Positions 26,801-63,726 of a DNA stretch of 64,000 bases are shown here, in pieces. Position 1 is the first letter of the stretch; every line of letters starts with the position of its first letter. Under the pieces are notes generated by a model. That model saw only the letters and a program-made list of their open reading frames with translations, was not told the origin of the DNA and did not search any database. Both the position numbers and the translations under genes were made by a program. This DNA is from a virus: IMG/VR virus record IMGVR_UViG_3300025705_000581; one strand, written 5' to 3'.

Positions 26801-29800
26801 GTATAACCACCCGCTGAGCCTGCATTGAATGTAATTGTAGTTGCATCCGCGGCGGTTACTTCTTGTGGGTGTTCGTACATCGGCTCACCGATACGTGGGT
26901 GATAGTCTGTTCCACCGCCATTAAATCCACAACTAAATGCGAAACTCAACGGTTTTGTTTGAACATTATCGCCTACTTCAATATCGTGTCCGGGGATTGT
27001 TACAACCATGTCACCTGTGTTAGGATTATATGTTGCGTCGGTTGGTGTGTAAGCTTTAACAAATTTTGCTGGGTCAGTAAAGTACAATGCGTGCCCATCA
27101 ATACAATCTTTTGTTGCCGATACGAATGTGTGCGTATTAGCATGCCCGTTAGCATTACCAACATTAACAGTAAATGTTGTTGAAGTTGTTTCTGTAATTC
27201 TTACAGGCTGATTATATGCTGGGTGACCTGGTAATGGTGCAGGATCTGTTCCTACAACACCGCCAACATCACAACTGAATACGATTGACTCAGGAGCAAT
27301 TGAAATCCATTGTCCTACAGGCAAATCATGCTGACCAATTGTTACAACCATTTCACCGTTTACAGGATCATATGTTGCATCTTGTGGTGTATATTTTCCT
27401 GTCCACATGCCATCTTCACGAATAGCATTTGTTGTTGCTGATACGAATGTATGAGCAGAAGTATCTTGTGATTTACCAACATTAACTGTAATAGTTGTTG
27501 CGGTTCTTGCACTGATTTCAACAGGGTTTTCGTATGCAGGATGCTGGCGTTCTGTTGTCAGACCATCGGCCAATGCTGATACGAATGTATGTACTCCGCC
27601 ACCATCTTCAACTGCACCGACATTCATTTTTAAAACAAAACCGTCAACTTCATCAATTGTTACAGGCTTATTAAAGAATGGGTGATGTGACTCAGGCGCG
27701 GCATGCTCGGTTACGTTATCATCAAGCTCACAAGTAAATGTTACGGCACCTGGTTTGAATGTTACAGTATCGCCTGCTTTCAATTGGTTAGCAGAAATTG
27801 TAACCGTGAACTCACCAGTTGATGGAACGTATGTTGCGGTTGATGGTGTCCATGTTTCAAATGTTGTTGATGGATACGCATGCTGTGAAGTGTTCCCATC
27901 AAGAGCACAGGTAAATACCATGCTGTTCTTTTCAATGCGGATTTTATCACCTACGGCAAAATCGTGAGCACCGATTGTAATTTCAACTACACCGGTTACA
28001 GGATTATACGCTGCATTAGTTGGTGTGTATTTTTTACCATTATTATTCAACAGTGCAACCATTTGGTCAAACGATGTGTTAACTCTATCAACTGCAAGTG
28101 TGTTACCTGTTACTGTGTTTGCAGTTTCAGATTTCATATGGTTGATTGAAGCAACAGTTTGCTCAAGTTGTTTTGTAACACTTACTTCGCCTGATTTAGA
28201 ACGGTAAGCAATACCTGTTTGATATGCGTTAAAGTTTGTACCTAACAACAAATCTCTTTGAACGGCAGGCATGATATATTCTTTAGTATCTCTTTCACAC
28301 TTTTTGCTGTCATAGAAATACCATTGATTTTCTGCCCATCCTTCCATGTAATCCTGGATGAATTCTTTGTTTGCTTGCAATTGCTTACGAGCATTACGTT
28401 TATCAGCAGGGATACCAGCATCATCAGAGAATGTTAATGCTTCACCTAATACGGATACAGATGATGGTTTTGCCGATACGAATGTATGAGCAAAGTTAGC
28501 ACCTGTTGTGCCTGCATTGATTGTAATAGTCTTTGCTGAAACTTCATCAATTGGTATAGCACGGCGGTAGTTAAATGTATCACTCTTACGTGGGTGAGAG
28601 ATTTCTAACTTGTTACCATCACTATCACAAGTGAATGTAAATGCTTCATCAGCAATTGTTACGAACTGACCTTTTTGCAAAGTATGGGCACCGATTGTGA
28701 TAACCATTCTTCCTGTATCAGGTTCGTATGTTGCTTTTGTTGGGTTGAATTTTTCAGTTCTTGTATTATCAAGAATATCAATAATTGTGCTCATTCTATC
28801 GTATGATCTTTCTGCCATGATTGCAGAGTTTGCTTCGACAAGATCATCGGTAATTTTGCGTAATCTTTCAAATGATCCAACAGTTTCTTCACGTTGATTT
28901 TCAACAACTGTTTGACCTTGTTTAGAATAATATGCCTGTCCTGCAACTACTGAGTTGTAGTTTGTATCAAGCAATGAGTCCCACTTAACAGCAGGTAGAA
29001 TATATTCTTGAATATCGCGGCGACATTTAGCACTATCGTATGAGAAGAATTCATCGTTATTATCAATCCATTCAACCATTCCATCAATAATAAGTTCACG
29101 GTTGTCTTGGATGATTTCACGAGCAGCTGTTCTTGCAACATTACCTGTATCTGTAAAGAATAGGTCAGATGCATATGACTCGCCATTCTCAAGAATGTTT
29201 AATGTCTCATCAAGTGAAACATTGGCACGAGTATTAACTGCTGCTTCTGAATTACTAAACAATCTGTTAATTTCTGATTTCAAATGTTCGTTGGCACCGA
29301 GAGTTTCAGTCAACTGCTCATTTTTAACAACATATGAAATTGGGCTTGAATAAGCAATGCCGTTTAATCGACCCCAATAGTTTGTATTGAGTGCAATGTC
29401 ATATCCAACACTATCAATGATAATTCCTGTGTCTCGTTTACATTTTTCAGCGTCATAACCTTGATAACCCAAACCACCTTGTGATATTGGTGTTGTCAAA
29501 TAACCAACCATGTCTTCAATAATGTCTTGCTTATTATCCATAAGGGTATCGGCAAATACAGTGTTAGAGAATAGTAATGTGTCATCCATTTGAGATGGTG
29601 TAAACACTTGAGTTGAACCTTTAGCTCTCATCGAAATGTCACCAAACTGAGTACCTGAGTTGTTGAGGGTCATTTGACCGCCGTTCAGCGCATAGAATGC
29701 TGTACGAACAAAGATTGACAACGAACCAATACCGTTAACACCAGCACCGTCTCTTGCAACATAACCCATACCGTTTTGAGTACGTGGTGTGAAACCAAAA

Positions 29801-49931: not shown

Positions 49932-51731
49932 TTATCTGTACCATGTTGATGCCTGATTTCTGTCCCTGTGGTCTATATGCAAAAATGAACTCCCCGGTGG
50001 AGTGTATACTCCTAATCCCCAAAAACCATTTGCTTGCGCAATTCTCATTAATCTACTTCTACCTTCCGGGTAAGTTGGCCAATCTAAATCAAATGCAATC
50101 CCTGTGGTGTGCAATGAATTTATTGCTACGTTTTGTATCCCCACCACGTCTCTTAAATATCTGTTATATGCCGGTGACCTATATCCGCTTACTAATTGTA
50201 CTTTTGGACCATCCCATTCAATAAGTGTTCTCATTAATGCTACACGCTCGTTAAACTCCGTCATTGTCCAAAATGTATCATAATGTGGTTCTACACCATT
50301 TTCTCTCATTGATGCATTACCATAAAGTGCTCTTGCACTATAAACAGGATCAATCCAAATATAACGATTTCTATTATTAATCAAATCATCAAACGTTGGA
50401 AAAACATCCAATACATCGTCAGGAGCAATTTGCCGGTCACCATAATTTCTTGGTCTTGATACGGGCCTTACGGATCCATCAACATTATTTGGGTCTGCTG
50501 GTGGCAAAGTTGATGTTTCAATTGCACCTTCCGGTACTGAACCTTGAGGCGGTTGCCATGGTTCCGTAGAGTCGTTTATAGATTGTTCTACCCTTTCTCT
50601 GTGTAACTGTTGTTGATTATTTATTCTTTCTTCAAGGACCTCGGGTGGTGTTCTAGTGCCATTAGCTGCAATTACTTGAGCGGTTGCAGCATTTCCTTGA
50701 ACTGTTAATGCTTCTTCGGCTGCTCTAAGATCATCGGCAAATGTTGTAAGCGGTTGTTTAACTTGAGTAACCTGTTCTTCAACACCTGTTAGCAATCCGC
50801 AGAAACGTGAGATGAGAAATTGAATTTCACCAATGCCAGGATTGGCAAACAATCCAACCGCATAATCAAACAACGCAGTCAACTTATCTTTAATAGATTG
50901 AATATTAGTTTTTTCAAAGAAAGCCAACGCTTTATCTCTGATTTTAATAAATGCTCTTGTGATACCTTTTAAAGAAGGTCCTACAATACCTTCAATTAAT
51001 GAACCTAAATCAAAGTTCTTAATTGCTGCTTCTACTTGTTTTACAACAGCTTCAAACATACCAATAAGTTTATCTTTAATAGCTTCAATTAATGCTTTTA
51101 CTTTAATTCTTTCAAACAATGCCTCTAATGGATTTTCAATGTTTTTAAGTTTTGATAAAAATGATAAAGCATCATTAAGAAGGGTACCTACTTGACCGAT
51201 CTTATCAAAGAATGAATTAATAGCACCAAAGATGTTTGGCAATGTGCCACACAATCCACCTGCGATTGCTAATGCAAAACCACCGGAAAAGAAACCGTCA
51301 AGTTGTTCTAAAAGGCTTGTAGAATTATTTGCAGTTGCAACACCAAAACTAAATGGCGTATAACCTTGACTTTCAAGGAAAGATGCAAATTCAATATCAG
51401 TTAGTGGACCTTTTTGTAACCGCGGTCCGAGGTATTCAAATTTTGGCAATTCTTTAACAATGTAATCTTCTTTAATAAATGTGTTATTAAAATTATTAAG
51501 TTGCGTATATAATTGTTCACCGTATTTTTCAACGGCTTTTGCAACCACATTGATAGGCTTATTAGAAGCACCAAAACCGGCAATATCAAATGCCATTTGA
51601 TTAATTGCTTGTTTAGTATAATTACCATTACTGTCAACAAACAATTGTACCGAAGCACCACGTGGCGTTAAAACGGTTGAAGCTTTTAGAGCCGATGGAA
51701 TAAACGGATCTGGATCTTTACAAGCTGTCAC
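49932..51731 (-). CDS. 599-aa protein with long helical N-terminus and C-terminal peptidase M15 (Zn D-Ala-D-Ala peptidase-like) domain
   Basis: LVSGYRSPAYN...SLHTTGIAFDL...GLGVY...FLHIDHR gives the Arg and His/Asp/His ligands of M15. Confidence 0.82.
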   Translation of the reverse strand: MTACKDPDPFIPSALKASTVLTPRGASVQLFVDSNGNYTKQAINQMAFDIAGFGASNKPINVVAKAVEKYGEQLYTQLNNFNNTFIKEDYIVKELPKFEYLGPRLQKGPLTDIEFASFLESQGYTPFSFGVATANNSTSLLEQLDGFFSGGFALAIAGGLCGTLPNIFGAINSFFDKIGQVGTLLNDALSFLSKLKNIENPLEALFERIKVKALIEAIKDKLIGMFEAVVKQVEAAIKNFDLGSLIEGIVGPSLKGITRAFIKIRDKALAFFEKTNIQSIKDKLTALFDYAVGLFANPGIGEIQFLISRFCGLLTGVEEQVTQVKQPLTTFADDLRAAEEALTVQGNAATAQVIAANGTRTPPEVLEERINNQQQLHRERVEQSINDSTEPWQPPQGSVPEGAIETSTLPPADPNNVDGSVRPVSRPRNYGDRQIAPDDVLDVFPTFDDLINNRNRYIWIDPVYSARALYGNASMRENGVEPHYDTFWTMTEFNERVALMRTLIEWDGPKVQLVSGYRSPAYNRYLRDVVGIQNVAINSLHTTGIAFDLDWPTYPEGRSRLMRIAQANGFWGLGVYTPPGSSFLHIDHRDRNQASTWYR

Positions 51732-51752
51732 AACTATTCTCCTTAAGTTTCA

Positions 51753-53141
51753 TTATGCTGTTTCCCCATCATCTGATTGGAAAACAGAAGCAGTATTGCG
51801 CACTCCATATTGATTTGCTGCGGCTGCTTTAACGGAAGTTGATTTTGTTGGTGGCTCAGGCATTTCTGGTGTAACTGCGCCAATAGCATCTTCAGCAAAT
51901 ACTGCTTCTGTTGCCGCGGCGTTTCCACCTTCTGCCATACTCACATAATCATTAATATAAACAGTACTACTTGCGGTAACACTAATGTTACCTCCTGACT
52001 CTACCTGAAGGTTTGTACCTGACAGTACACTAACATCAGATTCACCGAATATATTTAAAACACCTTGATTAGCTTTAATATTCATATCAGTGATGGCAGT
52101 CATATTCAAATTGTTTGCTTTAATATTCATATTAGATGTAGCTTGATCCCACATAAATGGTGCCTTGCGATACATCCCAATGCCTGCTTCAATTTGCATT
52201 TCTTTTTCGGCACGTATTGATAATGTACCAGCATTTGCTTCCATTCTTATATCACCGGCACGCATTTGAATTTGCTCGCTGACATTATAATTTGATTGTC
52301 CGCCAACTGAATGACTGTGATTTCCGTGTACTATTGTTTTAAGGTCACCTGTAATTTCTTCAGTTTTGTTTCCGTCAACATATACAGTTGCATCACCGTC
52401 AATTGATACATAAGATCTGCCGCCAATATGAACGTATTGATTTTCGTCCGTAACATCAAACCTTGCTCCTGTTGCCTTTGTTACAATATTACCGCCACTC
52501 CCAATCTGAACATAAGATTGAGTTTCAGTATTAGTAATCGTAATTCTTTCAGAACCTGGTGTATCGTCAAGTTCAACTATATGGCGTGCTGATTGGATAA
52601 CACGGTTATATGGATATGCTGCTTGATACCCGGGATCTGGTTCATCCCAGCTTTGTCCACCTTCAGGATCATCCGCAACAGTAACTTTGGTAACACGAGC
52701 CATTTTCTGTCCATGAAGGTGTGTTTTCTGTAGCTCTTCACCACGTTCTAATCTAGAAAGATGTGGTTGCCCTAAGTTTTCTGGTTGTGTTGCCCTAGAG
52801 TTCAATTCAGGTTGTTCTGTTATTACACCCCAACCTTTTGTTTCAGGATTAATTGCTTCATTATATTGAGTAGGAACAGTTCCGATAATAATTGGTTGCT
52901 GCGCATCTCTACCATCAATAAACAAACCAAAAACAAAATCATTTTCATCAGGGATTTGATTAAATAAGTCATTGACAAGACAGGTTGCCCATGGTAATGC
53001 TTGAGTCGGAACTTTATCATTCAGACCATGTACTCCAAATGCTCTTACTTGAACTCGTCCTTGTCTTTGTGGATCATCTCTATTTTCAATAACACCAATA
53101 AAGAATAAAGGTTCTCTTATGCCTACACCGTATGGAAACAT
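51753..53141 (-). CDS. gp5: Baseplate central spike gp5 (OB-fold plus beta-helix, no lysozyme domain)
   Basis: FIGVIENRDDPQRQGRVQVRAFGVH...LPWA...FVFGLFIDGRDAQQPIIIG; YPYNRVIQSARHIVELDDTPGSERI; VxG repeats. Confidence 0.92.
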   Translation of the reverse strand: MFPYGVGIREPLFFIGVIENRDDPQRQGRVQVRAFGVHGLNDKVPTQALPWATCLVNDLFNQIPDENDFVFGLFIDGRDAQQPIIIGTVPTQYNEAINPETKGWGVITEQPELNSRATQPENLGQPHLSRLERGEELQKTHLHGQKMARVTKVTVADDPEGGQSWDEPDPGYQAAYPYNRVIQSARHIVELDDTPGSERITITNTETQSYVQIGSGGNIVTKATGARFDVTDENQYVHIGGRSYVSIDGDATVYVDGNKTEEITGDLKTIVHGNHSHSVGGQSNYNVSEQIQMRAGDIRMEANAGTLSIRAEKEMQIEAGIGMYRKAPFMWDQATSNMNIKANNLNMTAITDMNIKANQGVLNIFGESDVSVLSGTNLQVESGGNISVTASSTVYINDYVSMAEGGNAAATEAVFAEDAIGAVTPEMPEPPTKSTSVKAAAANQYGVRNTASVFQSDDGETA

Positions 53142-54514
53142 TAATCACTACTCCAATCATATTTAACAAGCTCAAAGTTGGTTCTTACTCTGTCGTTTTC
53201 CAACGTATGCTTGGTTGTAAACACAAGATACCTACCTGATAGTTGTTGATGGTTATCAGAAGTACCTAAAGCATCAAATCCTTGAACTGTAAGATCAATT
53301 AATTGACCCGGCATAATATCCATTCGGCCTGTTAATGATGCCGATACTTTAGTGTTGTATAAATGGTGCCTATATGCTATTCGATTTGAAACCATATCAT
53401 CAAGTCTTTGGTCAGATGCCAATTCACGCGGAGTATTATAAGGTCCGGTAAAATCACGGAATGCAAGAAACCGTGGACCGTTGTCAAACCTGAATGTTTC
53501 TTCAGCATATTCTCTGGTATGCGGGAATTCAATTTGACCTCTTCGTGCCTGGACTCCTGACATATCAACAAATTCAGCTTCTTCGGTATACTTATATGTT
53601 GATTCAGAATATTCATGGTTTAATATATCAACTACACAAACCGTACTTGTATATCCACCCGATTTTATATCTTTACCAATATCACTACCTCTTGAACCAA
53701 TAGTGATATATTCAATACGATTAAGTTGCTTTTCAGGTTCTCTAGGATCATATGATGCATTAGGTGAATAAAAGAATTTTTGTATTTCGCCTTCTGCTTC
53801 AACTGATTCTTTAATTAAATATTCATCAGTCACAAAAAAGTAATCAGTTAAATTTTCAAAGAAACGATAAGTCTGTGAATTTGCTTCACCATAAGCACGT
53901 CGAGCAAGGAATAACATTGTTTCCGAGGCAGTGTAATGCGGGATAGCTAAATTGTTTAAACCGATTGTAGGTTGTACTGTAAACTTTCGGCTTTCATTTG
54001 TTACAAAATTAATCAATGGATATTTAGCAGTAGCATATGGGAATGTTCTATTTCCATCAGTATAAACAGCAGCACCAAGTGATGTAAAATAATTCCTAAA
54101 CGTATATTCAGCAATTTGGTTTATTGATTTATCGGTAAACCCTTCTTCAACGTCGGGTGCAACGGCTGCCGCATATGTAACTGCTGATATAAAATGAATA
54201 TTATACCGAACACCATTCATACTTTCAGTAGGTACTAAATTATCAATACGAATAACCTGGCATGCCAAATCATATTCAGTATCAAGGTCGTGGGACACAA
54301 TTTTTAAAATCAATTGTTCTTCGCCAAGTAACGGTGTGTTGTCAAGGAAACCAACAGTGTCCAGGACAGCGGCTACACCACTCCATGAAGTCATACCCAT
54401 CGACTGATTGATTTCAATACCATCAATCATCCCGGCGATATTTTCATCAAGGTTTGTGTATCTGTTTCTTAACGTAAATGAAACAATTGTATATGATGAT
54501 GGATTAAATGCCAT
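53141..54514 (-). CDS. Baseplate hub protein (gp27/late-control-D-like), 457 aa
   Basis: IEINQSMGMTSWSGVAAVLD...PLLGEEQLILKI; LARRAY...YRFFE; C-terminal GRMDIMPGQLIDL...SGRYLVFTTKH; lies directly upstream of gp5. Confidence 0.7.
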   Translation of the reverse strand: MAFNPSSYTIVSFTLRNRYTNLDENIAGMIDGIEINQSMGMTSWSGVAAVLDTVGFLDNTPLLGEEQLILKIVSHDLDTEYDLACQVIRIDNLVPTESMNGVRYNIHFISAVTYAAAVAPDVEEGFTDKSINQIAEYTFRNYFTSLGAAVYTDGNRTFPYATAKYPLINFVTNESRKFTVQPTIGLNNLAIPHYTASETMLFLARRAYGEANSQTYRFFENLTDYFFVTDEYLIKESVEAEGEIQKFFYSPNASYDPREPEKQLNRIEYITIGSRGSDIGKDIKSGGYTSTVCVVDILNHEYSESTYKYTEEAEFVDMSGVQARRGQIEFPHTREYAEETFRFDNGPRFLAFRDFTGPYNTPRELASDQRLDDMVSNRIAYRHHLYNTKVSASLTGRMDIMPGQLIDLTVQGFDALGTSDNHQQLSGRYLVFTTKHTLENDRVRTNFELVKYDWSSD

Positions 54515-54769
54515 TTATAGTTTTATGCTTTTTACAAATTCTTTAGTTACTTGTGGTAAATACTTTTTATCAATTAAAAAGATCTCACGCTTGTTTTCGT
54601 TTATTGCTCGCTCGTTATCCCAGATACGCCAAGGTTTCCATTCTTCAGGAATAATACGTTTAATAATAATTTTACGACCTTGTTCTGTTCTGATAATAAC
54701 TCGGTCTTCCTTACGAAGATAAATTGTTTCAAAACTTTCAGGTGTTAATTTGACTAGATCAACTGCCAT
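54515..54769 (-). CDS. 84-aa protein resembling the C-terminal part of gp53
   Basis: WDNERAINENKREIFLIDKKYLPQVTKEF; strong AGGGAGG SD 8 nt before ATG; same frame as the upstream gp53 ORF. Confidence 0.7.
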   Translation of the reverse strand: MAVDLVKLTPESFETIYLRKEDRVIIRTEQGRKIIIKRIIPEEWKPWRIWDNERAINENKREIFLIDKKYLPQVTKEFVKSIKL

Positions 54770-54772
54770 TTA

Positions 54773-55147
54773 TTAAACCTCCCTATACCAATAGATGATG
54801 TTCTCATCATTATCTTCTTGTGTCCAATCAACAACATCATCACCAATTCTACCTGATACATTACCGTATTTGTCAATTAGAAAATCTTTAAATTCTGCTT
54901 CCGACAAAGGCCACTCATGGTAAGGATCCATTATATTGTTTGCCATATAAACGAGCCAACTATAATCAACTGAACCGTAATAGAAATTAGCAATATCCTC
55001 GGCTCTTTCACCTTCACTAATTGTATATGGTAAATAAAGTAAAGGGTTTGTACTTACGTTACGAACGAATTGATTTCTTCGTGTAATATCACGTACCTGT
55101 TTACCTTCGTATGTTATAATTGGAAAATTTTCAAAATACTTTGCCAT
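54773..55147 (-). CDS. gp53: Baseplate wedge gp53 (N-terminal LysM-like part)
   Basis: MAKYFENFPIITY...YTISEGERAEDIANFYYGSVDYSWLVYMANNIMDPYHEWPLS. Confidence 0.85.
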   Translation of the reverse strand: MAKYFENFPIITYEGKQVRDITRRNQFVRNVSTNPLLYLPYTISEGERAEDIANFYYGSVDYSWLVYMANNIMDPYHEWPLSEAEFKDFLIDKYGNVSGRIGDDVVDWTQEDNDENIIYWYREV

Positions 55148-56127
55148 TAAGCTTCTCCTACTGCATTAGCTTCACCGCCGCTAATACCATAATCATTCGC
55201 AGTTTGAATTTCGAGTTCTTGAAAGGTTAATGCTATTTGAACTGCTGAAGGTTTACCACCTTTCATAACACTTGTTAATCCACCAACTTGATAATTAACA
55301 GTGAACTGTGTAACCATTGAAGTTTTATATTGCATCCAATGAGTAGGATCAATTCCTAATAAAAAGATATCTACGGTTGAAGGATATGACAAGAATGCCT
55401 GTGTAAGACCGGCAAAATCTCGTGCTACAGGTAATGTCTTTTGCTTGAACCTTTCAACAATCTTTTTAATCAAAATTGAGTCAGATTTATTTGTTGGATA
55501 TAAATCAAATGTCATATTATGAGTTCTTAAATCAACACCTTCAAACGATAGTGTTTCTCTTGGGTTAACAGTATTCCCTTGTACCGTATCAAGTGTTCTA
55601 CCAATGTCGCCTGGTAATTTACTACGCAAAAGGTATTGTGCTGACTTAGCGGTATCAGCAAGGCTTGATCCCATAATCGCCGATCCTGCTGCACTAATAG
55701 ACATATCCGCAGGTGCACTCCTACCCATGCCCGCTCCTAATGACGTTAATAGCTGTGGTAGTTCTGAAACTTTTGAATTACCAAAATCACTAGATGCAGC
55801 AAATTCTCTAGCAGCATTAGCAAGGTATTCTGTTGTTTTATTTCTTTCAAACCCGTTAATTCTAAGGTTCGTATCATCCTGTAGATTTGTAGGAAAAGGT
55901 AGTTCAATAGAATTAATTGATCTTAATTCACTGCCCACAGCTCTTTGCCCAACACTTACACTAGATGCGTTTAATCCACCGCCTAATGCAGTTTTAAAAT
56001 CATAATCTTTGAAAACGAACAGAACCGAATGTGGTACAGGCGATGTTGGAAAAGACAAGTTACCTTGAGTGTTCTTATTGCGCCATGCATTTTTGTCATG
56101 CTCTGGGCGAGTTGATATGTTCGCCAT
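55147..56127 (-). CDS. gp48: Baseplate tail-tube cap gp48
   Basis: IELPFPTNLQD; NPRETLSFEGVDLRTHNMTFDLYP...IVERFKQ; YPSTVDI; LTFQELEI. Confidence 0.85.
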   Translation of the reverse strand: MANISTRPEHDKNAWRNKNTQGNLSFPTSPVPHSVLFVFKDYDFKTALGGGLNASSVSVGQRAVGSELRSINSIELPFPTNLQDDTNLRINGFERNKTTEYLANAAREFAASSDFGNSKVSELPQLLTSLGAGMGRSAPADMSISAAGSAIMGSSLADTAKSAQYLLRSKLPGDIGRTLDTVQGNTVNPRETLSFEGVDLRTHNMTFDLYPTNKSDSILIKKIVERFKQKTLPVARDFAGLTQAFLSYPSTVDIFLLGIDPTHWMQYKTSMVTQFTVNYQVGGLTSVMKGGKPSAVQIALTFQELEIQTANDYGISGGEANAVGEA

Positions 56128-56145
56128 TTGATTCGGTCCTTTTCT

Positions 56146-56153
56146 TATAAATA
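56146..56153 (+). promoter_or_regulatory. T4-type late promoter TATAAATA (rightward, gp4 operon)
   Basis: Exact consensus in the divergence gap. Confidence 0.8.
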
Positions 56154-56164
56154 GTTTATGTTCT

Positions 56165-56172
56165 TATTTATA
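56165..56172 (-). promoter_or_regulatory. T4-type late promoter TATAAATA (leftward, gp48 operon)
   Basis: tatttata on the + strand in the divergence gap. Confidence 0.8.
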
Positions 56173-56179
56173 TGGAAGT

Positions 56180-56644
56180 GTGAGCAGGATATTGGCGTAT
56201 AGTGGTAGGTTTCGGCCGAAAAACCCGCAGAAATATAAAGGTGACCCTACAAAGATTATTTATCGTTCGTTGTGGGAGTTTAAATTCTTTAGACACGTGG
56301 ATAAACATCCTGATGTGATTTGGTGGCAAAGTGAAGAGGTTATTGTACCTTATAGATCACCAATTGATGGGCGGTTACATCGGTATTTTCCTGATGTGAT
56401 TGTTCGGCAGAAAAAGCCTGACGGTAAGACCGAAACATTAATGATTGAAATTAAACCAAAGGCACAGACAAGGCCGCCTGATATTCGTAATAAAAGTACA
56501 CTCAAAGGTCGTGTGTCAAAACGCTATTTGAATGAGGTTAAAACCTGGGGTGTTAATGAGGCAAAGTGGAAAGCAGCACAGAAATTTTGTGCTGACCGCG
56601 GGTGGAAATTTTTGATATATACTGAAGATCATTTAGGAGTTTAA
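56180..56644 (+). CDS. gp4: Head completion protein gp4 (TnsA-like nuclease fold); start may be TTG at 56192
   Basis: AYSGRFRPKNPQKYKGDPTKIIYRSLWE...WWQSEEVIVPYRSPIDGRLHRYFPD...IEIKP...NEAKWKAA. Confidence 0.92.
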   Translation: MSRILAYSGRFRPKNPQKYKGDPTKIIYRSLWEFKFFRHVDKHPDVIWWQSEEVIVPYRSPIDGRLHRYFPDVIVRQKKPDGKTETLMIEIKPKAQTRPPDIRNKSTLKGRVSKRYLNEVKTWGVNEAKWKAAQKFCADRGWKFLIYTEDHLGV

Positions 56645-56646
56645 AA

Positions 56647-57255
56647 ATGGTAGCACAATTATTTGACGATATACTATTAAGAGGTGTCCGTGAAGGGCAA
56701 ATCCCTGCACGTACTGCAGGTGCCAGAGATTGGTATCGTCAGCAAGCCGCTACAGTTGGAAAAGGTGAAGCAAAAGGTGAAAAACTTATTCGTGAAGCCG
56801 GTAAAGAAAGATACGAAAACAGATTTAGATTAGGCCATATGTATATGTTTGCATATGATCCGAAGCACAAAAAGACATTACCATACTATGATAGGTTTCC
56901 ACTTATATTTCCGATAAATAGAGCACAAGGTGGTTTTCTTGGTATCAATATGCATTATTTGCCACCCACCTTAAGAGCAAAATTAATGGACCAACTATAT
57001 ACCGTTGCCTCCAATAAAAAATATGATGAGAGTACTAAATTGAGGATTAGTTATGATGTATTAAACGGAGCATCTAAGTTTAAGTTATTTGCACCTACGG
57101 TGAAACATTATTTAACAAAACAGGTAAGAACAAGATTAGTGTATATTAATCCTTCAGAATGGGACATTGCATTATTCTTACCGACACAAAAATTCGTTGG
57201 AGCAAAACAATCAAAAGTTTGGTCTGACTCAAGAAAAGCCGTAAGAGGAAGATAA
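56647..57255 (+). CDS. gp2: DNA end protector protein gp2
   Basis: GHMYMFAYDPKHKKTLPYYDRFPLIFP...GFLGINMHYLPPTLRAKL...VKHYL...EWDIALFLPTQKF. Confidence 0.92.
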   Translation: MVAQLFDDILLRGVREGQIPARTAGARDWYRQQAATVGKGEAKGEKLIREAGKERYENRFRLGHMYMFAYDPKHKKTLPYYDRFPLIFPINRAQGGFLGINMHYLPPTLRAKLMDQLYTVASNKKYDESTKLRISYDVLNGASKFKLFAPTVKHYLTKQVRTRLVYINPSEWDIALFLPTQKFVGAKQSKVWSDSRKAVRGR

Positions 57256-58023
57256 ATGTCTTTTAACATATCAAAATTCAAATCAAATATGGACCGTTAC
57301 GGTGGACCTGCCCATACCTCATTATTTGAAGTTCAAATCATTCCACCCGGTGTTAGAATTGAATCAGGATTAACACCAAGGGAACTTACATTCTTTTGTA
57401 AAACCGCGGCAGTACCAGGTTTAACCGTAAGAACAGAAACACTTGAACAAGTTGGCCAATTGCCAAAACAGTTTCCTGTAGGAATGGATAACCAACAATT
57501 TAATACAATCTTTATGCTTGACTCCGACCACGCCGTTGTGAGTTATTTCCACTCATGGATACAGTCAGTTGTAAATTATGGTTCAAAAGGTGGATCCTTT
57601 GCTGAGGTTGATGGGCAACTGCCATATGAGGTGGGATATAAAGATGAGTATTCATGCCGAATGATTATCAAATATTATTCAACACGCGGTAACATTGAAA
57701 CTTATTATGAGACAATTCTTGACGGATGTTATCCAACAGTTATTGGTGATATTGATTTGGCATGGGAAAACAATGACAGCTTTGGCACATTACCTGTTGC
57801 GTTTGCATACGATCGCATTGCGTTTAGTGGAGAAAAGGTCGGTTTGGTTGGAACACTTGAACGGTTTGGACGAGGCGCAGGATTGTTATCATTACTCGAA
57901 TCAGTAGGCAGCATTGGCCAAACAATTCAACAAGGTATAAGACCTGTTGGCATTCAAGATGCAATTAATAGGTTTACTAAAGTAAGAAGCGATTTCGATA
58001 ATATATCAAAAATATTTAGATAA
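57256..58023 (+). CDS. gp54: Baseplate tail-tube initiator (gp54, gp19-fold)
   Basis: FNISKFKS...GGPAHTSLFEV...LTFFCKTAAVPG...CYPTVIGDIDLAWENND...LPVAFAY. Confidence 0.75.
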   Translation: MSFNISKFKSNMDRYGGPAHTSLFEVQIIPPGVRIESGLTPRELTFFCKTAAVPGLTVRTETLEQVGQLPKQFPVGMDNQQFNTIFMLDSDHAVVSYFHSWIQSVVNYGSKGGSFAEVDGQLPYEVGYKDEYSCRMIIKYYSTRGNIETYYETILDGCYPTVIGDIDLAWENNDSFGTLPVAFAYDRIAFSGEKVGLVGTLERFGRGAGLLSLLESVGSIGQTIQQGIRPVGIQDAINRFTKVRSDFDNISKIFR

Positions 58024-58040
58024 TAAGAGGACAATAAATT

Positions 58041-58742
58041 ATGACACTACCAAAAATTGATTTACCGATTTATGAGATGGAATTGCCATCAACCGGTGAA
58101 ACTGTTAAGTACCGTCCCTTCACGGTTAAAGAAGAAAAGATTCTATTAGTTGCTCAAGCATCTAAAGATAGTACACAAGAAATGGTTGCATCAAAGCAAA
58201 TCGTAAATAACTGTTTGATTGACTATGATGTTATGAAATTAGCAATGTTTGATCTTGAGCTCATTCTATTGACGTTGAGATCAAAATCTGTTGATAACTT
58301 AATTGAAATGCAGATCACTGATCCTGATACAGACGAAACTGTTGATATTTCAATTGATTTGATGGACACTGAAGTTATTAAAAATGATAAGCATAGTAAC
58401 CAAGTTAAGATCAATGATGATTACACATTAATTCTAAAGTATCCTTCGATTGATGAGTATATTAGAATTACTGAAATGGATGAAGATGATCCATTGGTAT
58501 CATATCAAATTATGGTTTCCTGTTTGGATAAAGTTGCATCGGAAGATGAAGTTTATGAGTTCAAAAAGTATTCGCAAAAAGAAATAGATCAATTCATGGA
58601 AGATGTGACAACCCCGGTAGTTGATGGTATTAGATTATTTTTTGAAACAATGCCAAAGATAAGACACACTAAAACATACAAGAATAAAAACGGCGACACT
58701 AAAAACTTTGTAATAGAAGGAATGCGAAGTTTTTTTACATAA
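58041..58742 (+). CDS. gp26: Baseplate hub assembly protein gp26
   Basis: MTLPKIDLPIYEMELPSTGETVKYRPFTVKEEKILL...DLELILLTLRSKSV...FFETMPKI. Confidence 0.92.
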   Translation: MTLPKIDLPIYEMELPSTGETVKYRPFTVKEEKILLVAQASKDSTQEMVASKQIVNNCLIDYDVMKLAMFDLELILLTLRSKSVDNLIEMQITDPDTDETVDISIDLMDTEVIKNDKHSNQVKINDDYTLILKYPSIDEYIRITEMDEDDPLVSYQIMVSCLDKVASEDEVYEFKKYSQKEIDQFMEDVTTPVVDGIRLFFETMPKIRHTKTYKNKNGDTKNFVIEGMRSFFT

Positions 58743-58906
58743 TGTTGTGCCATTCATCACTGAGCGAATATTACCAAACGATGTTTGCTCTGGTTCAACA
58801 TCATAAGTATTCTATATCAGATATTGAAAGTTTGGTACCGTATGAAAAAGAATTATATTTTACAATGTTAATTGAGTTCATGGAAAAGCAAAACGAGAAT
58901 AGGTAA
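58742..58906 (+). CDS. gp51: Baseplate hub assembly catalyst gp51, 54 aa (below track cutoff)
   Basis: MLCHSSLSEYYQTMFALVQHHKYSISDIESLVPYEKELYFTMLIEFMEKQNENR*; TAATG overlap with the gp26 stop. Confidence 0.88.
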   Translation: MLCHSSLSEYYQTMFALVQHHKYSISDIESLVPYEKELYFTMLIEFMEKQNENR

Positions 58907-58911
58907 GAAAC

Positions 58912-61011
58912 ATGGCTAGAGAATATTCCAAAGATACAGAAGCAATCATCCAAAGGCTTAGGGATGAAGGTGACCTGATCCGTGATAGTGGAACAAATTC
59001 ATTAAAAACAGTCGGTTCAAAACTCGACAAGTTTGGTGATGTTTTCAAATCAATTAATAATGGAATACAAGCTCAAAGCGTAATGCTAAAGCAAGCACAA
59101 GGTATAGCGGAAGAACAATACGAGTATACAAAAAGACAACGGGATTTTGATGATTTAAAATCAGAAAAGATTGCTACTGATACTCGTAAGAATGCCGAAG
59201 ACCGTGACGCAAAATTAATTGACGGTGTTACAAAGGCATTTAACTTAGGTAACCTTACCAAATTACTTGTAGGTGGTGCAGGACTTGCTGCCGCAGGCCT
59301 TATAGGTAAAGGGTTTATAGATGAAAAATTTCCTAATGCATTTGACGGTATGGGCGATATAGTCACGGAATTAAAAACTTCTGTTGAAGGTTTGAATACA
59401 GCAGCATCTGAGTTGTCACGAACTGTTAATGAAGTAAAAAATGATATTGAATCATTTAAAAATAGTATAGCCGTGCAGCTTGCCATCGCATTGGCCAGTA
59501 TTCCCTTAGGATTTGCTGTTACCAGAGGTCTTGCTAAAGGTATACCAGCAGGTGTAACGGCATATCGTGGTGCAAGGCAAGGTGATGCTGGTTTAGCACA
59601 AGCGAAGGCAATTAAAGAAGCACAAGAGCGAGCAGCGAAAGAAGCAGCAGAAGCAGCGGCAAAACAAGCAGCAGAAGTTGCAGCAAGAGAAGCAGCAGAA
59701 GCAGCAGCTAAGAGAGCAGCTCAATCTGCTGCATCTGATGATAGGTTAATAGCAATCGCGGCACAGCAGGCAGCAGACGTAGCGGCAAGAGAAGCAGCAG
59801 AAGCAGCAGCCCGTAAAACGGCGGCAATCACAGCATCAGTCGCAGCACAAGAAGCAGCATATGCTGCTGCCGCTGGTCCTAATAGAATTCAACCACCGCT
59901 ATTAAATAAAAGCCCGACCGGAATGTTTAATTCACCAGACGCATTGCCCAATATTAGGGTTGAAGAGATGGGTAATGGAACCATTAGATATCGAGATATG
60001 GGTAAAAATGGAACATTTATGCGAAGGGATGTGGCAGTCCAACGACTAGCAGCTGCAGGACTTGGACCTGACGGTTTACCAGATTATAGCAGAACATCTC
60101 GGCCTCCACGTGTTGGCCCAAGAACAGGTGATGCTGGTTTGACAGAGACAAGAAGAATGTTAGCCCAAGGAGCACGGGACGGTGCAGATCTTTTAGCAAA
60201 TGCCGACAAAGGTTTGATACGAAAAATGGTTGGAACTGAAACCAAGAAAATTGCGTTAAAATGGATTCCTGCTGTCGGTGCAGTTGTAGGTATTGGGTTT
60301 GCAGCATATAGTCTTTTCATAGGAGATTATACATCCGCCGGTTTAGAAACAGTCGGTGTAGCATTCCCTAGTATTACTGGTATTGCTGCTGATGTAGCCG
60401 CAGCTACTACTTCAATCTTTTTCCATGTTGGCGGAGTAGGTCCTTATAACCAATTCAACCCAGCACACCGTGCACTATATATGGAAATTGCTAGGCAGTT
60501 GCGAGATTCAATTGATAAGTACATGGAAGAAAGAGCAAGGGCAAAAGCACAACGAGCATCGGAACCTTCACCTGCTGAGCGTTTGGCAATGGAAGCACAA
60601 ATTCAGTATAGCAATATGGCTCATGAAAGACAAGATACTTATTATGAAAGAAATGAAAGCGGAGGATTTTTAGGAATGCGCCGTTACTCGATATATAATT
60701 CTTCAGGACAATTTCTTCGTTATTCACGCTCAAAACCTGATGGTACTACATCTATGGATGGTTTCCGTATTAATCAAGCAAGGAATAATTATTACCCATC
60801 AGCACAGCGCCAAATGGCACGAGCACAAATGGTTGCAGCAGGTGCAATAGGCTCAGGCGGACAAGTTAATGTTCATATGGGTGATACCGTAAACGCGCCA
60901 ATGTCTTATACCGAAGGTGCAAGTTCCATGGCAAATGTTAGAGTGAACGGTGGTGGCGGAGGCGGTGCTACCGATGATCCGTTTAGTAATTTGCCACCAG
61001 GTATTAATTAA
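58912..61011 (+). CDS. Baseplate hub/tail-length determinant (gp29-like tape measure), 699 aa
   Basis: Follows gp26-gp51; long helical Ala-rich protein; KWIPAVGAVVGIGFAAYSLFIGDYTSAGLE segment typical of marine T4-like gp29. Confidence 0.6.
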   Translation: MAREYSKDTEAIIQRLRDEGDLIRDSGTNSLKTVGSKLDKFGDVFKSINNGIQAQSVMLKQAQGIAEEQYEYTKRQRDFDDLKSEKIATDTRKNAEDRDAKLIDGVTKAFNLGNLTKLLVGGAGLAAAGLIGKGFIDEKFPNAFDGMGDIVTELKTSVEGLNTAASELSRTVNEVKNDIESFKNSIAVQLAIALASIPLGFAVTRGLAKGIPAGVTAYRGARQGDAGLAQAKAIKEAQERAAKEAAEAAAKQAAEVAAREAAEAAAKRAAQSAASDDRLIAIAAQQAADVAAREAAEAAARKTAAITASVAAQEAAYAAAAGPNRIQPPLLNKSPTGMFNSPDALPNIRVEEMGNGTIRYRDMGKNGTFMRRDVAVQRLAAAGLGPDGLPDYSRTSRPPRVGPRTGDAGLTETRRMLAQGARDGADLLANADKGLIRKMVGTETKKIALKWIPAVGAVVGIGFAAYSLFIGDYTSAGLETVGVAFPSITGIAADVAAATTSIFFHVGGVGPYNQFNPAHRALYMEIARQLRDSIDKYMEERARAKAQRASEPSPAERLAMEAQIQYSNMAHERQDTYYERNESGGFLGMRRYSIYNSSGQFLRYSRSKPDGTTSMDGFRINQARNNYYPSAQRQMARAQMVAAGAIGSGGQVNVHMGDTVNAPMSYTEGASSMANVRVNGGGGGGATDDPFSNLPPGIN

Positions 61012-62401
61012 ATATCTTTTTAATTTGATTATCAATTGCAGTTTGCGGATCATTAATATATTGGTTTATATTAAATAGATCTTTGAGCTCATTCAGGATT
61101 TCAATCCTTACTGAATCATTATCGTTAAAGTATTTAATTCTTTCATCAATATCCCACGCATTAGCGACTAACAGTTTTTCTTGAATATGTTTAGGTATTT
61201 GTAAACAATCAGGATCATATTGTGTATCAAGAAATGGTATAATATCGGAATAGGCATATAGTACAGGTCTAAAGTTTAGTGAGTCATTAATTGACACGCA
61301 TCTAAAAATCATTCCATACTTATATCTTTTTGTTTTATCATTGACCTCGGACGGAAGCAATGCTTCTTTATAATTTTTATGTTCTATAACATTATTATAT
61401 AGTTCTGTAAATGCAGCAGTTTCTTTAAGAGTTGTTTCCGCTCGTTCTGATCTACCGTCCTTTGATTTATTAATACCATTCTTTCTTAATGGAATATAAT
61501 AAGAACAATCATCGGATTTGACATCCTTTAGAAACTTATCCCAAATAAATCTCCTACTGCCTTTGTCCTGAAATAACGTACCAGCAAAAAACATATTATG
61601 AGTTTTCTTAACTTCATCATCAAAGAAACTATCGAGTGTTTTTGGTTTAAATTTTTCATCATAGATAATATGCTGTAATTGTGATATATCAAGTTGTTGA
61701 AAGTTTCTTGTACCACGTGTATCATCGGCAAAATAAAACAGTTTCGTTTTAATTCCCATTTTATCAAAGTACGGTGTATAGATTGCAGGATCAATTGAAA
61801 AGGCAATCAATTCTTTATTCAATTTATTTACTTTATTGATATATCCAATACACTCCATAAACCAAAAGTAATCTTTTGTACTAAACGCATATGGTGATAC
61901 ACGCTTATCCCAATTAGAAGTCATATCGGTATTCATTTCATCAATTTTTTGCATTATATCAGAATCAGTACCAATATAATCAAAGAATTCGTTTTGCATA
62001 TTATACAGGAATTCAGAATATTCTTTACCGCAAAACCTTTGTAATGGCAGCCTGAAGAAATCATCAGTACCTAAAATGATATGGTCAACAACAGGTAAAT
62101 CAACAAAACTATCATCCAACCAAGAACGCATTGTAATTGCATTCTTTTCCTTATAGTCAGGTCCGTTACCTTCTTTTCTTAAAAGGCTATCGGTAGCACC
62201 ACGTTGGAGTTCATAGTAATTATCAGTGAGGCCGCAACCTGCACCGATTGTAATAATATTATATTTGTCTTTAATGTTTTCTTTTACAATACGAGCTGGA
62301 CCGTAGATGTGCGTATAGGAATTATGATTTCCTTTATCCATAAAAATAACAGTTGGTTTACTCTCATCAATAATAAGATTACCCATCAATTTAAAAATCA
62401 T
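61004..62401 (-). CDS. GT-B glycosyltransferase-like protein, 465 aa, resembling T4 DNA beta-glucosyltransferase
   Basis: GAGGTG SD; C-terminal half KKTHNMFFAGTLFQDKGSRR...NDSLNFRP...IPFLDTQYD...LLVANAWDIDERIKYF matches my recollection of T4 BGT; CDS certain, function inferred. Confidence 0.55.
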   Translation of the reverse strand: MIFKLMGNLIIDESKPTVIFMDKGNHNSYTHIYGPARIVKENIKDKYNIITIGAGCGLTDNYYELQRGATDSLLRKEGNGPDYKEKNAITMRSWLDDSFVDLPVVDHIILGTDDFFRLPLQRFCGKEYSEFLYNMQNEFFDYIGTDSDIMQKIDEMNTDMTSNWDKRVSPYAFSTKDYFWFMECIGYINKVNKLNKELIAFSIDPAIYTPYFDKMGIKTKLFYFADDTRGTRNFQQLDISQLQHIIYDEKFKPKTLDSFFDDEVKKTHNMFFAGTLFQDKGSRRFIWDKFLKDVKSDDCSYYIPLRKNGINKSKDGRSERAETTLKETAAFTELYNNVIEHKNYKEALLPSEVNDKTKRYKYGMIFRCVSINDSLNFRPVLYAYSDIIPFLDTQYDPDCLQIPKHIQEKLLVANAWDIDERIKYFNDNDSVRIEILNELKDLFNINQYINDPQTAIDNQIKKIFN

Positions 62402-62418
62402 TTATCACCTCACATAGT

Positions 62419-62442
62419 AAAAGAAAAGGGCCGTAGCCCTTC
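62419..62442 (-). terminator. Rho-independent terminator with UACG tetraloop
   Basis: Minus strand AAGGGC-TACG-GCCCTT-TTCTTTT directly after the 72-aa gene stop. Confidence 0.8.
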
Positions 62443-62446
62443 TCAG

Positions 62447-62665
62447 TTATTCCTTATTTGAAACAAACGAATACATCTCTGTAGCTTTTTTCGTGAGCTC
62501 CTCGACTGAATATAGTTCAGTCATCTTTTGATATTCTTCAAATTGAATTTGACCTAATTCCATCATTTTGGCTGCATAGATATGGTTAGTTTCATGGATT
62601 TGATCCATATACTCTTTAGCCATCTGCAACATATCAGCACGAATTTCAAAAGGATTTTTACTCAT
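62447..62665 (-). CDS. Conserved phage hypothetical protein, 72 aa
   Basis: MSKNPFEIRADMLQMAKEYM...EELTKKATEMYSFVS; TAATG-coupled to the upstream gene. Confidence 0.8.
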   Translation of the reverse strand: MSKNPFEIRADMLQMAKEYMDQIHETNHIYAAKMMELGQIQFEEYQKMTELYSVEELTKKATEMYSFVSNKE

Positions 62666-62874
62666 TATTTTACTACCTTTGCAAAAGTTTCACCTGACGC
62701 ATTAGCAAATTCGCTCATTGATTTAACAGCGGTTTTGGTAAAAGCTGTTTGAGCTTCAATAAAGGCATGCAAAGGTGCAGACAGTTTCTCGTCTTTTACC
62801 AATGTGTCAACCATTGTTTTCTTTGTAGACTGGACATGGTCAATCCAATAATTAGTTGTAAAATCATTTAGCAT
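62665..62874 (-). CDS. Small amphipathic helical protein, possibly phasin-like, 69 aa
   Basis: AGGAG SD; IDHVQSTKKTMVDTLV...FIEAQTAFTKTAVKSM; phasin similarity is recollection only. Confidence 0.6.
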   Translation of the reverse strand: MLNDFTTNYWIDHVQSTKKTMVDTLVKDEKLSAPLHAFIEAQTAFTKTAVKSMSEFANASGETFAKVVK

Positions 62875-62893
62875 TTTAGTTCTCCTGTGTGTG

Positions 62894-63088
62894 TTATCCG
62901 CCTCCTGCGAAGCGGTCTTTTGGTTTATACCAATTCTTTTGATGAAAGATTTTAGCTCTAAGATTTGTAATATCTTCTATTTCAAATCCTATTGTACCAG
63001 TGCGTTGCATTTGCAATAGCAATAGTGCTTCATCAATAATATTTATATCGTCAACATCTAAGTTAAAACTTGTATTAGGTTTTACCAT
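62894..63088 (-). CDS. Small hypothetical protein, 64 aa, resembling an alphaproteobacterial family
   Basis: NTSFNLDVDDINIIDEAL...KIFHQKNWYKPK...GG; TAATG-coupled to pseudoazurin. Confidence 0.7.
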   Translation of the reverse strand: MVKPNTSFNLDVDDINIIDEALLLLQMQRTGTIGFEIEDITNLRAKIFHQKNWYKPKDRFAGGG

Positions 63089-63519
63089 TACAGATCAGCC
63101 AATAGCTCCTCGAGTTTTTTCTTTGATTTACCTTTTACTTTGACACCTTTTAGACGATCCTTTACTACTTCAGGATCTGTGCCGCCTACGATAACAATAG
63201 CAATCATCCCCATTGTTTTGTGTGGTGAACATTGGTACAAGTAAACACCTGGTGTATTAAACGTCATTTCAACTTCTTCGTTGAGTTTTGATTTCTTTGG
63301 TGCTTTCCAACCATCTGGTCCTGCAACAAATTCTACATTGTGACCTTTTGATGTTGGTACCCAGGTAATTGTATCACCTACATCAATACGAGAAATGTCT
63401 TCGCTATACACCATTTTTGCGCCATCGTCACGTTTATTCAACATTTCAATAGTCATATCTTCAGCATATGCCGTTGTTGCGAAAAGAGCCATAAGGCTAG
63501 CAGTAATTAGATTTTTCAT
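63088..63519 (-). CDS. paz: Pseudoazurin (periplasmic type-1 blue copper electron carrier) with Sec signal peptide
   Basis: Signal MKNLITASLMALFATTAYA; mature EDMTIEMLNK...MVY...GDTITWVP..KGHNVE...TPGVYLYQCSPHKTMGMIAIVIVG (His, Cys-x2-His-x4-Met), plus the C-terminal helices of pseudoazurins. Confidence 0.93.
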   Translation of the reverse strand: MKNLITASLMALFATTAYAEDMTIEMLNKRDDGAKMVYSEDISRIDVGDTITWVPTSKGHNVEFVAGPDGWKAPKKSKLNEEVEMTFNTPGVYLYQCSPHKTMGMIAIVIVGGTDPEVVKDRLKGVKVKGKSKKKLEELLADL

Positions 63520-63546
63520 TTTTTTCCTATCTTTACTTCTTTACAT

Positions 63547-63726
63547 TCATAGTGATCTTGTTCCATAATAGGAACGGTAAACTTCAGCAAGTTCTTGTTG
63601 GTTAGTCGACTCCTGAACAACATAGTCAGTCTTATCAACTTGTGTTCCATCAGCAATTGCAATAGCATCTTCTTTGCGTGATGCTATAGCAATAATTTCA
63701 CCGTCTTTTTTCCTAACGATATGCAT
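63547..63726 (-). CDS. Small hypothetical protein, 59 aa (start MHIVRKK)
   Basis: ATG at 63726 overlaps the upstream stop (TAATG); the track's MFWSEL extension lies inside the upstream gene. Confidence 0.7.
   Translation of the reverse strand: MHIVRKKDGEIIAIASRKEDAIAIADGTQVDKTDYVVQESTNQQELAEVYRSYYGTRSL

Follow-up and report, generated by a model that had tools for sequence, protein, structure and literature searches.

We describe here GT465, a family of glycosyltransferases (GTs) named after the 465-amino-acid (aa) GT-B enzyme encoded at 61004-62401 on the minus strand of a 64-kb stretch of DNA (the window, i.e., that whole stretch) from an uncultured T4-like phage recorded in IMG/VR. GT465 has a GT-B fold, its C-terminal domain is homologous to that of T4 beta-glucosyltransferase (BGT), and in other phage lineages its gene lies in one operon with a dCMP hydroxymethylase gene. 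We consider it likely that the protein works in the hypermodification of DNA containing 5-hydroxymethylcytosine (hmC), and we read GT465 as an acquired accessory transferase that was added to a pre-existing sugar-modification system.

The nucleotide-sugar domain of GT465 is homologous to that of T4 BGT

A reading of the window from its letters alone (the sequence-only reading) had suggested a remote BGT-like gene at this position and, with it, possible DNA hypermodification. The open reading frame (ORF) that it described is real and intact, and its product divides into two domains:

61004-62401, minus strand: GT465 coding sequence, an intact 465-aa ORF with an ATG start and a stop codon at 61004-61006 (from the ORF list)
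61691-62401, minus strand: N-terminal (acceptor) domain of residues 1-237; its Rossmann-like sheet carries a helical insertion located within approximately residues 111-193
61067-61690, minus strand: C-terminal (nucleotide-sugar) domain, residues ~238-445, homologous to the C-domain of T4 BGT

The window protein has no Pfam match at E <= 10 and none in PHROGs or NCBIfam. Neither phmmer nor a family-profile hmmsearch returned anything meaningful for GT465 among PDB sequences, and tblastn and megablast searches of 50,697 GenBank phage records gave no match. Its full-length homologues (n = 58, 32-99% identity) are all metagenomic and none has a name; a profile hidden Markov model (HMM) search of 1.84 billion representatives returned 115 clusters (50% identity), all viral or metagenomic. 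An AlphaFold2 model built from a 41-sequence alignment (predicted local distance difference test, 93.6; predicted TM-score, 0.91) consists of two Rossmann-like domains, i.e., a GT-B fold.

T4 BGT is represented by the Pfam models PF09198 and PF13524 and the PDB entries 1J39, 1QKJ and 1C3J, and a 27-member BGT family profile served for comparison with its family. PF09198, whose family we take to be CAZy GT63, is present in all true BGT homologues. The structural comparison with BGT that the sequence-only reading had called for placed T4 BGT entries in all six top positions of a Foldseek search of the PDB (E 3e-10 to 4e-9; next family, 9e-8), and a "DNA beta-glucosyltransferase" from BFVD ranked second among the viral models matching GT465. 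Identity in the structural alignment of GT465 and BGT was only 14-16%. By hhalign, GT465 matched T4 BGT alone weakly (E 0.0027) and the 27-member BGT profile with a probability of 92.6% and E 4.5e-7 over 183 columns (query 235-456, BGT 158-349); these alignments recovered all four of the colinear blocks that had earlier been picked out by eye. PF13524 (Glyco_trans_1_2), which has no match in the window protein, matched 22 of 41 family members weakly (E <= 1, best 5.7e-7), and many T4 BGT homologues have the same weak call. The T4 alpha-glucosyltransferase family (PF11440) was neither a family-model match nor a top structural match for GT465.

The residues that bind the UDP phosphates in BGT (S189, R191, R195 and R269), all invariant in the BGT family, were compared with their aligned positions in GT465. 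R195 corresponds to R283 (at least 90% conserved), S189 to T275 and, nearby, G193 to G281; R191 stands opposite D279, adjacent to the near-invariant K280. R269, the Arg that the sequence-only reading had described as kept, corresponds to R378, a position occupied by Arg or Lys across the GT465 family.

GT465 is 114 aa longer than BGT, with ~80 aa of the excess in the N-lobe (a ~15-aa N-terminal extension and the helical insertion within 111-193) and ~35 aa in the C-lobe near residues 300-345, so the earlier estimate of an N-lobe ~100 aa longer was approximately right. The N-domains of GT465 and BGT are left unaligned by hhalign, and the GT465 N-domain folded alone gave generic Rossmann matches only, not specifically BGT-like ones. 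The likeness to BGT is thus one of nucleotide-sugar domain and overall architecture, and not evidently of the acceptor (N) domain. Within the N-domain, D141, D204-P205 and D227-x-R229-G230-x-R232 are invariant across the GT465 family. In BGT, the catalytic base D100 is part of a T99-D100 pair that is invariant in its family and follows an N-domain strand; on strand order in the model, D204 (D204-P205 follows strand 194-201) is a candidate counterpart. A TD-x2-FRLP motif at GT465 residues 112-119 resembles the TD-x-RLP of BGT, and we dropped it as the catalytic-loop equivalent because its Asp is poorly conserved (26 of 41 members) and strand counting favors D204. Isoelectric point was likewise dropped as a discriminator: the window protein has a value of 5.5, and the medians of the GT465 and BGT families are alike (6.6 vs 6.35).

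GT465 genes are linked to hydroxymethylase genes

An IMG/VR scan yielded 22 loci with GT465 relatives (30-98% identity), and 16 contigs were searched for a thymidylate-synthase homologue, the family to which dCMP hydroxymethylases belong. We found such a homologue in 15/16 GT465-bearing contigs; the remaining contig is 65% complete and has its GT465 gene close to the contig end. All 15 homologues carry D145, C148, D171 and D179 (T4 numbering), the signature of a 5-hydroxymethyl-dCMP (5-hmdCMP) synthase.

ORF-by-ORF comparison combined with Pfam and NCBIfam annotation placed the GT465 gene within one operon with the hydroxymethylase gene in at least nine lineages (L008, L009, L011, L012, L013, L015, L017, L018 and L021). 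The recurring order is P-loop nucleotide kinase, hydroxymethylase, an unknown 181-aa protein, HAD phosphatase, a nucleotidyltransferase/APH-type sugar-kinase fusion, GT465, a second GT (408-466 aa) and a C5-cytosine-methylase-like gene, with an additional kit of kinase, cytidylyltransferase and epimerase between GT465 and the second GT in some lineages. Overlapping reading frames are frequent in these operons. GT465 and hydroxymethylase genes are adjacent or 1.5-5.5 kb apart in G005-G007, G009-G011 and G015-G017, and in L012 GT465 starts 19 nt past the end of the hydroxymethylase gene. T4 b-gt adjoins gene 42, so that linkage to a gp42-type hydroxymethylase gene is common to b-gt and GT465.

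For a genome-wide search we used the nearest available relative of the window, a 221-kb IMG/VR genome rated 100% complete (G001), which is 92.7% identical in nucleotides over 51043-62896 and has a GT465 copy that is 98% identical. G001 encodes a 232-aa thymidylate-synthase homologue that matches T4 gp42 (PDB 1B49) over its full length (E 1.2e-61) and retains the catalytic Cys and the Asp that specifies dCMP. Its gene is 15 kb from GT465, and the island of hydroxymethylase and associated genes spans 8-17 kb from GT465; the two genes are presumably 15 kb apart in the phage of the window as well. The search for a dCMP hydroxymethylase that the sequence-only reading had recommended thus turned up a gp42-type enzyme in relatives (G001 and the 15/16 contigs), not in the window itself, and with the frequent sharing of an operon it supports that reading's proposal of DNA hypermodification.

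Some phage thymidylate-synthase homologues make 5-hydroxy-dCMP instead, and three positions are diagnostic: an acidic residue at E. coli L143, an Asp at N177 for dCMP specificity, and an Asn at D169 in the hydroxylases (PMC13326640). The G001 enzyme has Asp at the L143, N177 and D169 positions, the same as T4 gp42. Because Asp stands at all three, we read the G001 enzyme as a putative hmC synthase, not a 5-hydroxycytosine synthase.

Two further features of these loci were noted. In G001, the dCMP deaminase and hydroxymethylase genes have between them a complete gene for a beta-ketoacyl-ACP synthase (PF00109 and PF02801; L045:13906-15144, minus strand). The G017 contig (L030, L040) encodes, besides its hmC-type hydroxymethylase, a thymidylate synthase of the canonical type (signature Leu, Cys, Asp, Asn).

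A second, clamp-tailed transferase accompanies GT465

The second GT of these operons was not foreseen by the sequence-only reading. It and its methylase-like neighbor are located as follows in G001 and in G005, a relative from another lineage:

L045:9714-10976: clamp-tailed BGT-like GT of G001, 420 aa
L008:11433-12659: clamp-tailed BGT-like GT of G005, 408 aa
L045:8477-9700: C5-cytosine-methylase-like protein of G001
L008:12649-13938: C5-cytosine-methylase-like protein of G005

The C-domain of this GT has weak similarity to both BGT and GT465 (hhalign E ~0.003), and a structure search of the ESM Atlas placed it near a PF09198 cluster (TM-score 0.65-0.73); clusters of PF09198 and PF13524 are neighbors of both transferases, GT465 included, in the same resource. 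This weak evidence marks it as a BGT-like GT-B enzyme. At the positions of BGT R269 and E272 it has K and E.

The second GT and the methylase-like protein have C-termini that match the tail of the DNA polymerase encoded by their own phage (its ends taken from L050 and L049). In G001 the tails are of the form TLE-x-FF (polymerase NTLEDFFG, methylase-like protein PTLEEFFA, second GT ATLEAFF), and in G005 they read AELDDW (polymerase), GLDDW (second GT) and EAEQW (methylase-like protein). Between lineages the tail co-varies with that of the polymerase, from TLE-x-FF to LDDW/EEW to (S/A/K)LF. A clamp-binding tail was looked for on the GT465 protein and its family and was not found. In T4, the alpha-glucosyltransferase binds the clamp gp45 and the beta-glucosyltransferase does not (PMC13216743). 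The island pair of tailed GT and tail-less GT465 therefore mirrors the T4 pair, in that GT465 and T4 BGT both lack a clamp-binding tail and each is found beside a clamp-associated partner GT (PMC13216743).

The two GTs of the island occur in the same operons and are both GT-B enzymes. They differ in that the clamp-tailed GT has the polymerase-like tail, keeps K and E, is present in sister genomes without GT465 and is far commoner (311 IMG/VR stretches vs 22 for GT465). In its 80 closest loci the order of the island is hydroxymethylase, dCMP deaminase, sugar kit, HAD phosphatase, clamp-tailed GT, methylase-like gene and exonuclease, and the island does not include GT465. A cytosine methylase look-alike encoded in a phage inferred to replace C by hmC is an unexplained pairing. 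Separately, the gp43-like polymerase of the G005 contig (74497-76951; L049, L051, L052) extends over two open frames of 536 aa and 376 aa, which suggests a split DNA polymerase gene in that lineage.

GT465 is an accessory and probably acquired gene

GT465 was absent from 10/10 sister contigs that have the island, three of them at least 91% complete; as a positive control, the same query recovers GT465 in G001 and G005. In those sister genomes the syntenic site has a gene of 147-148 aa that adjoins the convergent gp29-like gene, and no transferase. Since the lineage already has a clamp-tailed BGT-like GT, GT465 is an accessory.

Base composition and conservation of the gene set it apart from its surroundings. 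The sequence-only reading had taken low GC as a sign of horizontal acquisition, and at 30.6% (window, 38.8%) the gene is the minimum among all 1.4-kb windows of the 64 kb, with a GC content at third codon positions of 23.6%. Between the window and G001, nucleotide identity is ~99% for GT465, 77-85% for the flank on the gp29-like side and <70% for that on the other side. The ratio of nonsynonymous to synonymous substitution rates between the two copies is 0.15, indicating purifying selection on GT465. Judged from synteny, GT465 came to lie beside the tail genes by insertion at a derived site that only the window/G001 lineage has. Its low GC and patchy presence, its derived position and the conservation of the cassette relative to its divergent flanks together indicate that GT465 is probably a recent horizontal gain under purifying selection. 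The proposal of horizontal acquisition thus gains from the lowest GC of the window, the absence at the syntenic site of three sisters and the ~99% nucleotide identity amid divergent flanks.

GT465 may glycosylate hmC directly, off the replication fork

We propose the following pathway. A gp42-type enzyme would make 5-hmdCMP, and a MazZ-like dNTP pyrophosphohydrolase, a dCMP deaminase and a P-loop kinase (found in the relatives) would shape the nucleotide pool, so that hmC would replace C in DNA. A sugar-1-kinase/nucleotidyltransferase fusion and a HAD phosphatase would make the activated sugar. The clamp-tailed BGT-like GT would then glycosylate hmC at the replication fork, its tail presumably tethering it to the sliding clamp. 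GT465, which has no clamp tail, is for that reason proposed to act off the fork, like T4 beta-glucosyltransferase. It would hold a nucleoside diphosphate sugar (NDP-sugar) in its BGT-like C-domain through T275, K280, R283 and R/K378 and would move the sugar directly to the 5-CH2OH of unmodified hmC in duplex DNA, with the invariant N-domain aspartate D204, or else D227, as the base. We give an even chance to this beta-glucosyltransferase-like mechanism, in which a free enzyme sugars hmC left bare by the fork-associated GT. A sugar other than glucose is conceivable, given that GT465 lacks the invariant Glu that follows R269 in BGT and that NDP-sugars made by the phage would be at hand.

Several observations weigh against this reading. 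PF09198, the model of the BGT N-terminal domain, gave no match to the window protein and is missing from the 25 families listed for 41 family members. The Glu that follows R269 in BGT (E272, in the helix after R269 and invariant in 27 BGT homologues) stands opposite L381, as the sequence-only reading had seen in calling it lost, and this position is Leu throughout the GT465 family (motif NF[RK]PVLY); loss of this ribose-binding Glu suggests that the nucleotide may be held differently. For BGT D100, GT465 offers no more than a candidate equivalent. With PF09198 and E272 missing, and with N-domain and D100 equivalents that are putative, GT465 lies outside the BGT family as Pfam defines it, although it plausibly works in a BGT-like manner. 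Of the 115 HMM matches, inspected down to all but the weakest, most have family-like lengths or are fragments. The absence of GT465 from island-bearing sisters means that the gene is not needed for hmC glycosylation as such. In the window, GT465 lies beside tail genes and ~8 kb from the equivalent of the G001 island start; the window stops ~6 kb short of the island start as placed in G001, leaving the island outside it. Finally, searches of G001 and G005 with the single T4 sequences of gp1 (dNMP kinase) and gp56 (dCTPase) gave no convincing match; the G001 result is the one that counts against the reading here. This null result is not proof of absence, because a P-loop kinase in G005 and a PF18909 pyrophosphohydrolase in G001 adjoin the hydroxymethylase. 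The latter, a 103-aa protein with the N-domain of dATP/dGTP diphosphohydrolases (MazZ-like; L045:17012-17323, minus strand), is encoded two genes upstream of the hydroxymethylase and is a candidate stand-in for gp56.

The alternative that fares best against these data, which we nevertheless regard as doubtful, is that GT465 is an elongating transferase: the clamp-tailed GT would add the first sugar to hmC and GT465 would add a second sugar onto it. The beta-glucosyl-HMC-alpha-glucosyltransferase of T2 and T6 is a precedent for such an enzyme. Sugar chains built on cytosine by several GTs are documented (PMC13326640), and RB69 and DLP3, which have a second and a third arabinosyltransferase, are precedents too. 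Elongation would also suit a GT465 that is dispensable where island and clamp-tailed GT are present (0/10 sister contigs), that nearly always shares its contig with a clamp-tailed GT, and whose partner is so much the commoner of the two (311 vs 22); with its large insertion and an N-domain that is not BGT-like, it may also have a different acceptor. However, the best structural match of GT465 is BGT, an enzyme that acts on the base itself, and the TAGT family PF20691 is not among the Pfam matches of GT465 members. The gene order in L012 also argues against elongation, as GT465 there comes directly after the hydroxymethylase, and the sugar kit that comes after GT465 is the one adjoining the clamp-tailed GT. 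In L014, whose contig is just 22 kb long, a search over 20 kb detected no clamp-tailed GT.

We consider it improbable that GT465 has a non-DNA acceptor, such as a virion protein, a host envelope glycan or a small molecule. The abutting tail/baseplate module in the window points that way, as do an N-domain without specific likeness to DNA enzymes and the finding that most metagenomic phage GT contigs are not beside base-modification genes (bioRxiv 10.1101/2023.12.21.572611). The position beside tail genes is, however, the derived insertion site of the window/G001 lineage; in at least nine other lineages GT465 belongs to the hmC operon, where frames frequently overlap, and hydroxymethylase is present in 15/16 contigs. 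Moreover, GT465 is on the early-type strand, and the sole late-promoter-like TATAAATA within 1.6 kb upstream is intragenic. Least probable by far is action before replication on a free nucleotide (5-hmdCMP or 5-hmdCTP), for which the missing clamp tail of GT465 and a metagenomic 5-hmC carbamoyltransferase that takes 5-hmdCTP as well as DNA (PMC8670742) could be cited, but the phage DNA glycosyltransferases described in PMC13326640 and PMC13216743 act on DNA after replication, the polymerase would need to accept a glycosylated dNTP, and no sequence feature is in its favor.

Direct glycosylation of hmC by GT465 thus remains our preferred mechanism. On a bolder reading, which we offer only tentatively, uncultured T4-like phages would have rebuilt the two-enzyme logic of T4 independently, with one BGT-like GT tethered to the sliding clamp by a polymerase-type tail and with a free, horizontally mobile GT465. 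Having a new acceptor domain and an altered nucleotide pocket, GT465 would attach to hmC, or to the sugar already there, a second kind of sugar or linkage. If this were true, these phages would have a chemically undescribed cytosine hypermodification that is upgradable by gaining one gene.

Comparison with known systems

The arabinosylation clusters of RB69 and DLP3 resemble the GT465 loci in having a thymidylate-synthase homologue, a nucleotide kinase, a HAD phosphatase, a nucleotidyltransferase-sugar-kinase fusion and several GT-B enzymes (PMC13326640). They differ in that theirs proceed through 5-hydroxycytosine made by a D169N synthase, whereas GT465 lineages have the T4-type hmC signature, and in that their transferases resemble GT4 enzymes (MshA, BshA, PimA), not BGT. 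Metaviromic clusters reported by Pyle et al. (bioRxiv 10.1101/2023.12.21.572611) likewise have phage GT-B genes near a thymidylate-synthase homologue, APH-type kinases, epimerases and clamp genes, although the GTs from which that survey set out belong to methyltransferase/TET pathways. The general kind of locus, in which a GT-B gene is clustered with a thymidylate-synthase homologue, sugar kinases and epimerases, is thus already published (bioRxiv 10.1101/2023.12.21.572611; PMC13326640). From T4 BGT itself, with which it has in common profile-level homology of the C-domain and apparently the phosphate-binding positions R195/R283, R269/R378(K) and S189/T275, GT465 differs in its 114 additional aa, the insertion within 111-193, the Leu in place of E272 and the missing PF09198.

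What is new is the unnamed GT465 family with its divergent acceptor lobe, its occurrence as the tail-less partner of a clamp-tailed transferase, and the evidence for its movement as a single-gene add-on. No description of the family was found in searches of the open-access literature and no named member in the databases searched. Sugar-coated cytosine is a classic means by which phages escape restriction enzymes and CRISPR, and its chemistry is known from few cultured phages; the GT465 family suggests that BGT-type glycosylation of DNA reaches beyond these to T4-like phages that are uncultured. A natural experiment is provided by sister phages that have or lack GT465, as they should differ in DNA nucleosides and in sensitivity to modification-dependent nucleases. 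A BGT-like scaffold with another acceptor lobe and donor pocket could also serve in hmC labeling.

The GT465 gene and its surroundings in the window

Two signals precede the coding sequence:

62406-62411, minus strand: Shine-Dalgarno sequence GAGGTG, 4 nt 5' of the GT465 ATG (read from the sequence)
62423-62444, minus strand: GC-rich hairpin with a 9-bp stem and a UACG loop, followed by a T-run (terminator scan and sequence)

The hairpin sits between an upstream 72-aa gene and the GT465 gene and looks like an intrinsic terminator. GT465 is convergent with a gp29-like tail gene (58912-61011, plus strand), which it overlaps by 8 nt. Its plus-strand neighbors are T4-type head-completion and tail genes (PHROGs homologues of gp4, gp2, gp3 and gp26), and a gp48 homologue identified in the same way is on the minus strand. 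Small genes without functional annotation and a pseudoazurin gene lie 5' of GT465 on the minus strand. GT465 shares its strand with the small early-type genes, and the late tail genes are on the other one. In a promoter scan, sigma-70-like sites were as numerous as expected from shuffled sequence and TATAAATA sites showed no overall enrichment; the single TATAAATA on the GT465 strand within 1.6 kb upstream is at 63040-63047, inside a coding region. Two TATAAATA late-promoter-like boxes in opposite orientations are found at 56146-56172, where 52 nt separate the gp48-like gene from the gp4-like gene.

The pseudoazurin gene (63088-63519, minus strand; PF00127, E 1.4e-15) falls within a stretch (62896-63563) that G001 lacks despite being 93% identical otherwise, which marks it as another variable cassette at the early/late junction. 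The gp29-like protein has an Ala/Glu/Lys-rich repeat region and no PHROG match, and over 59043-61042 its gene is only 77-85% identical to the G001 copy, compared with 92-97% for neighboring structural genes. Two giant late ORFs on the minus strand were also observed, one at 20881-31881 (3666 aa) and an open-ended one at 1-8349 that encodes at least 2783 aa and runs past the window start.

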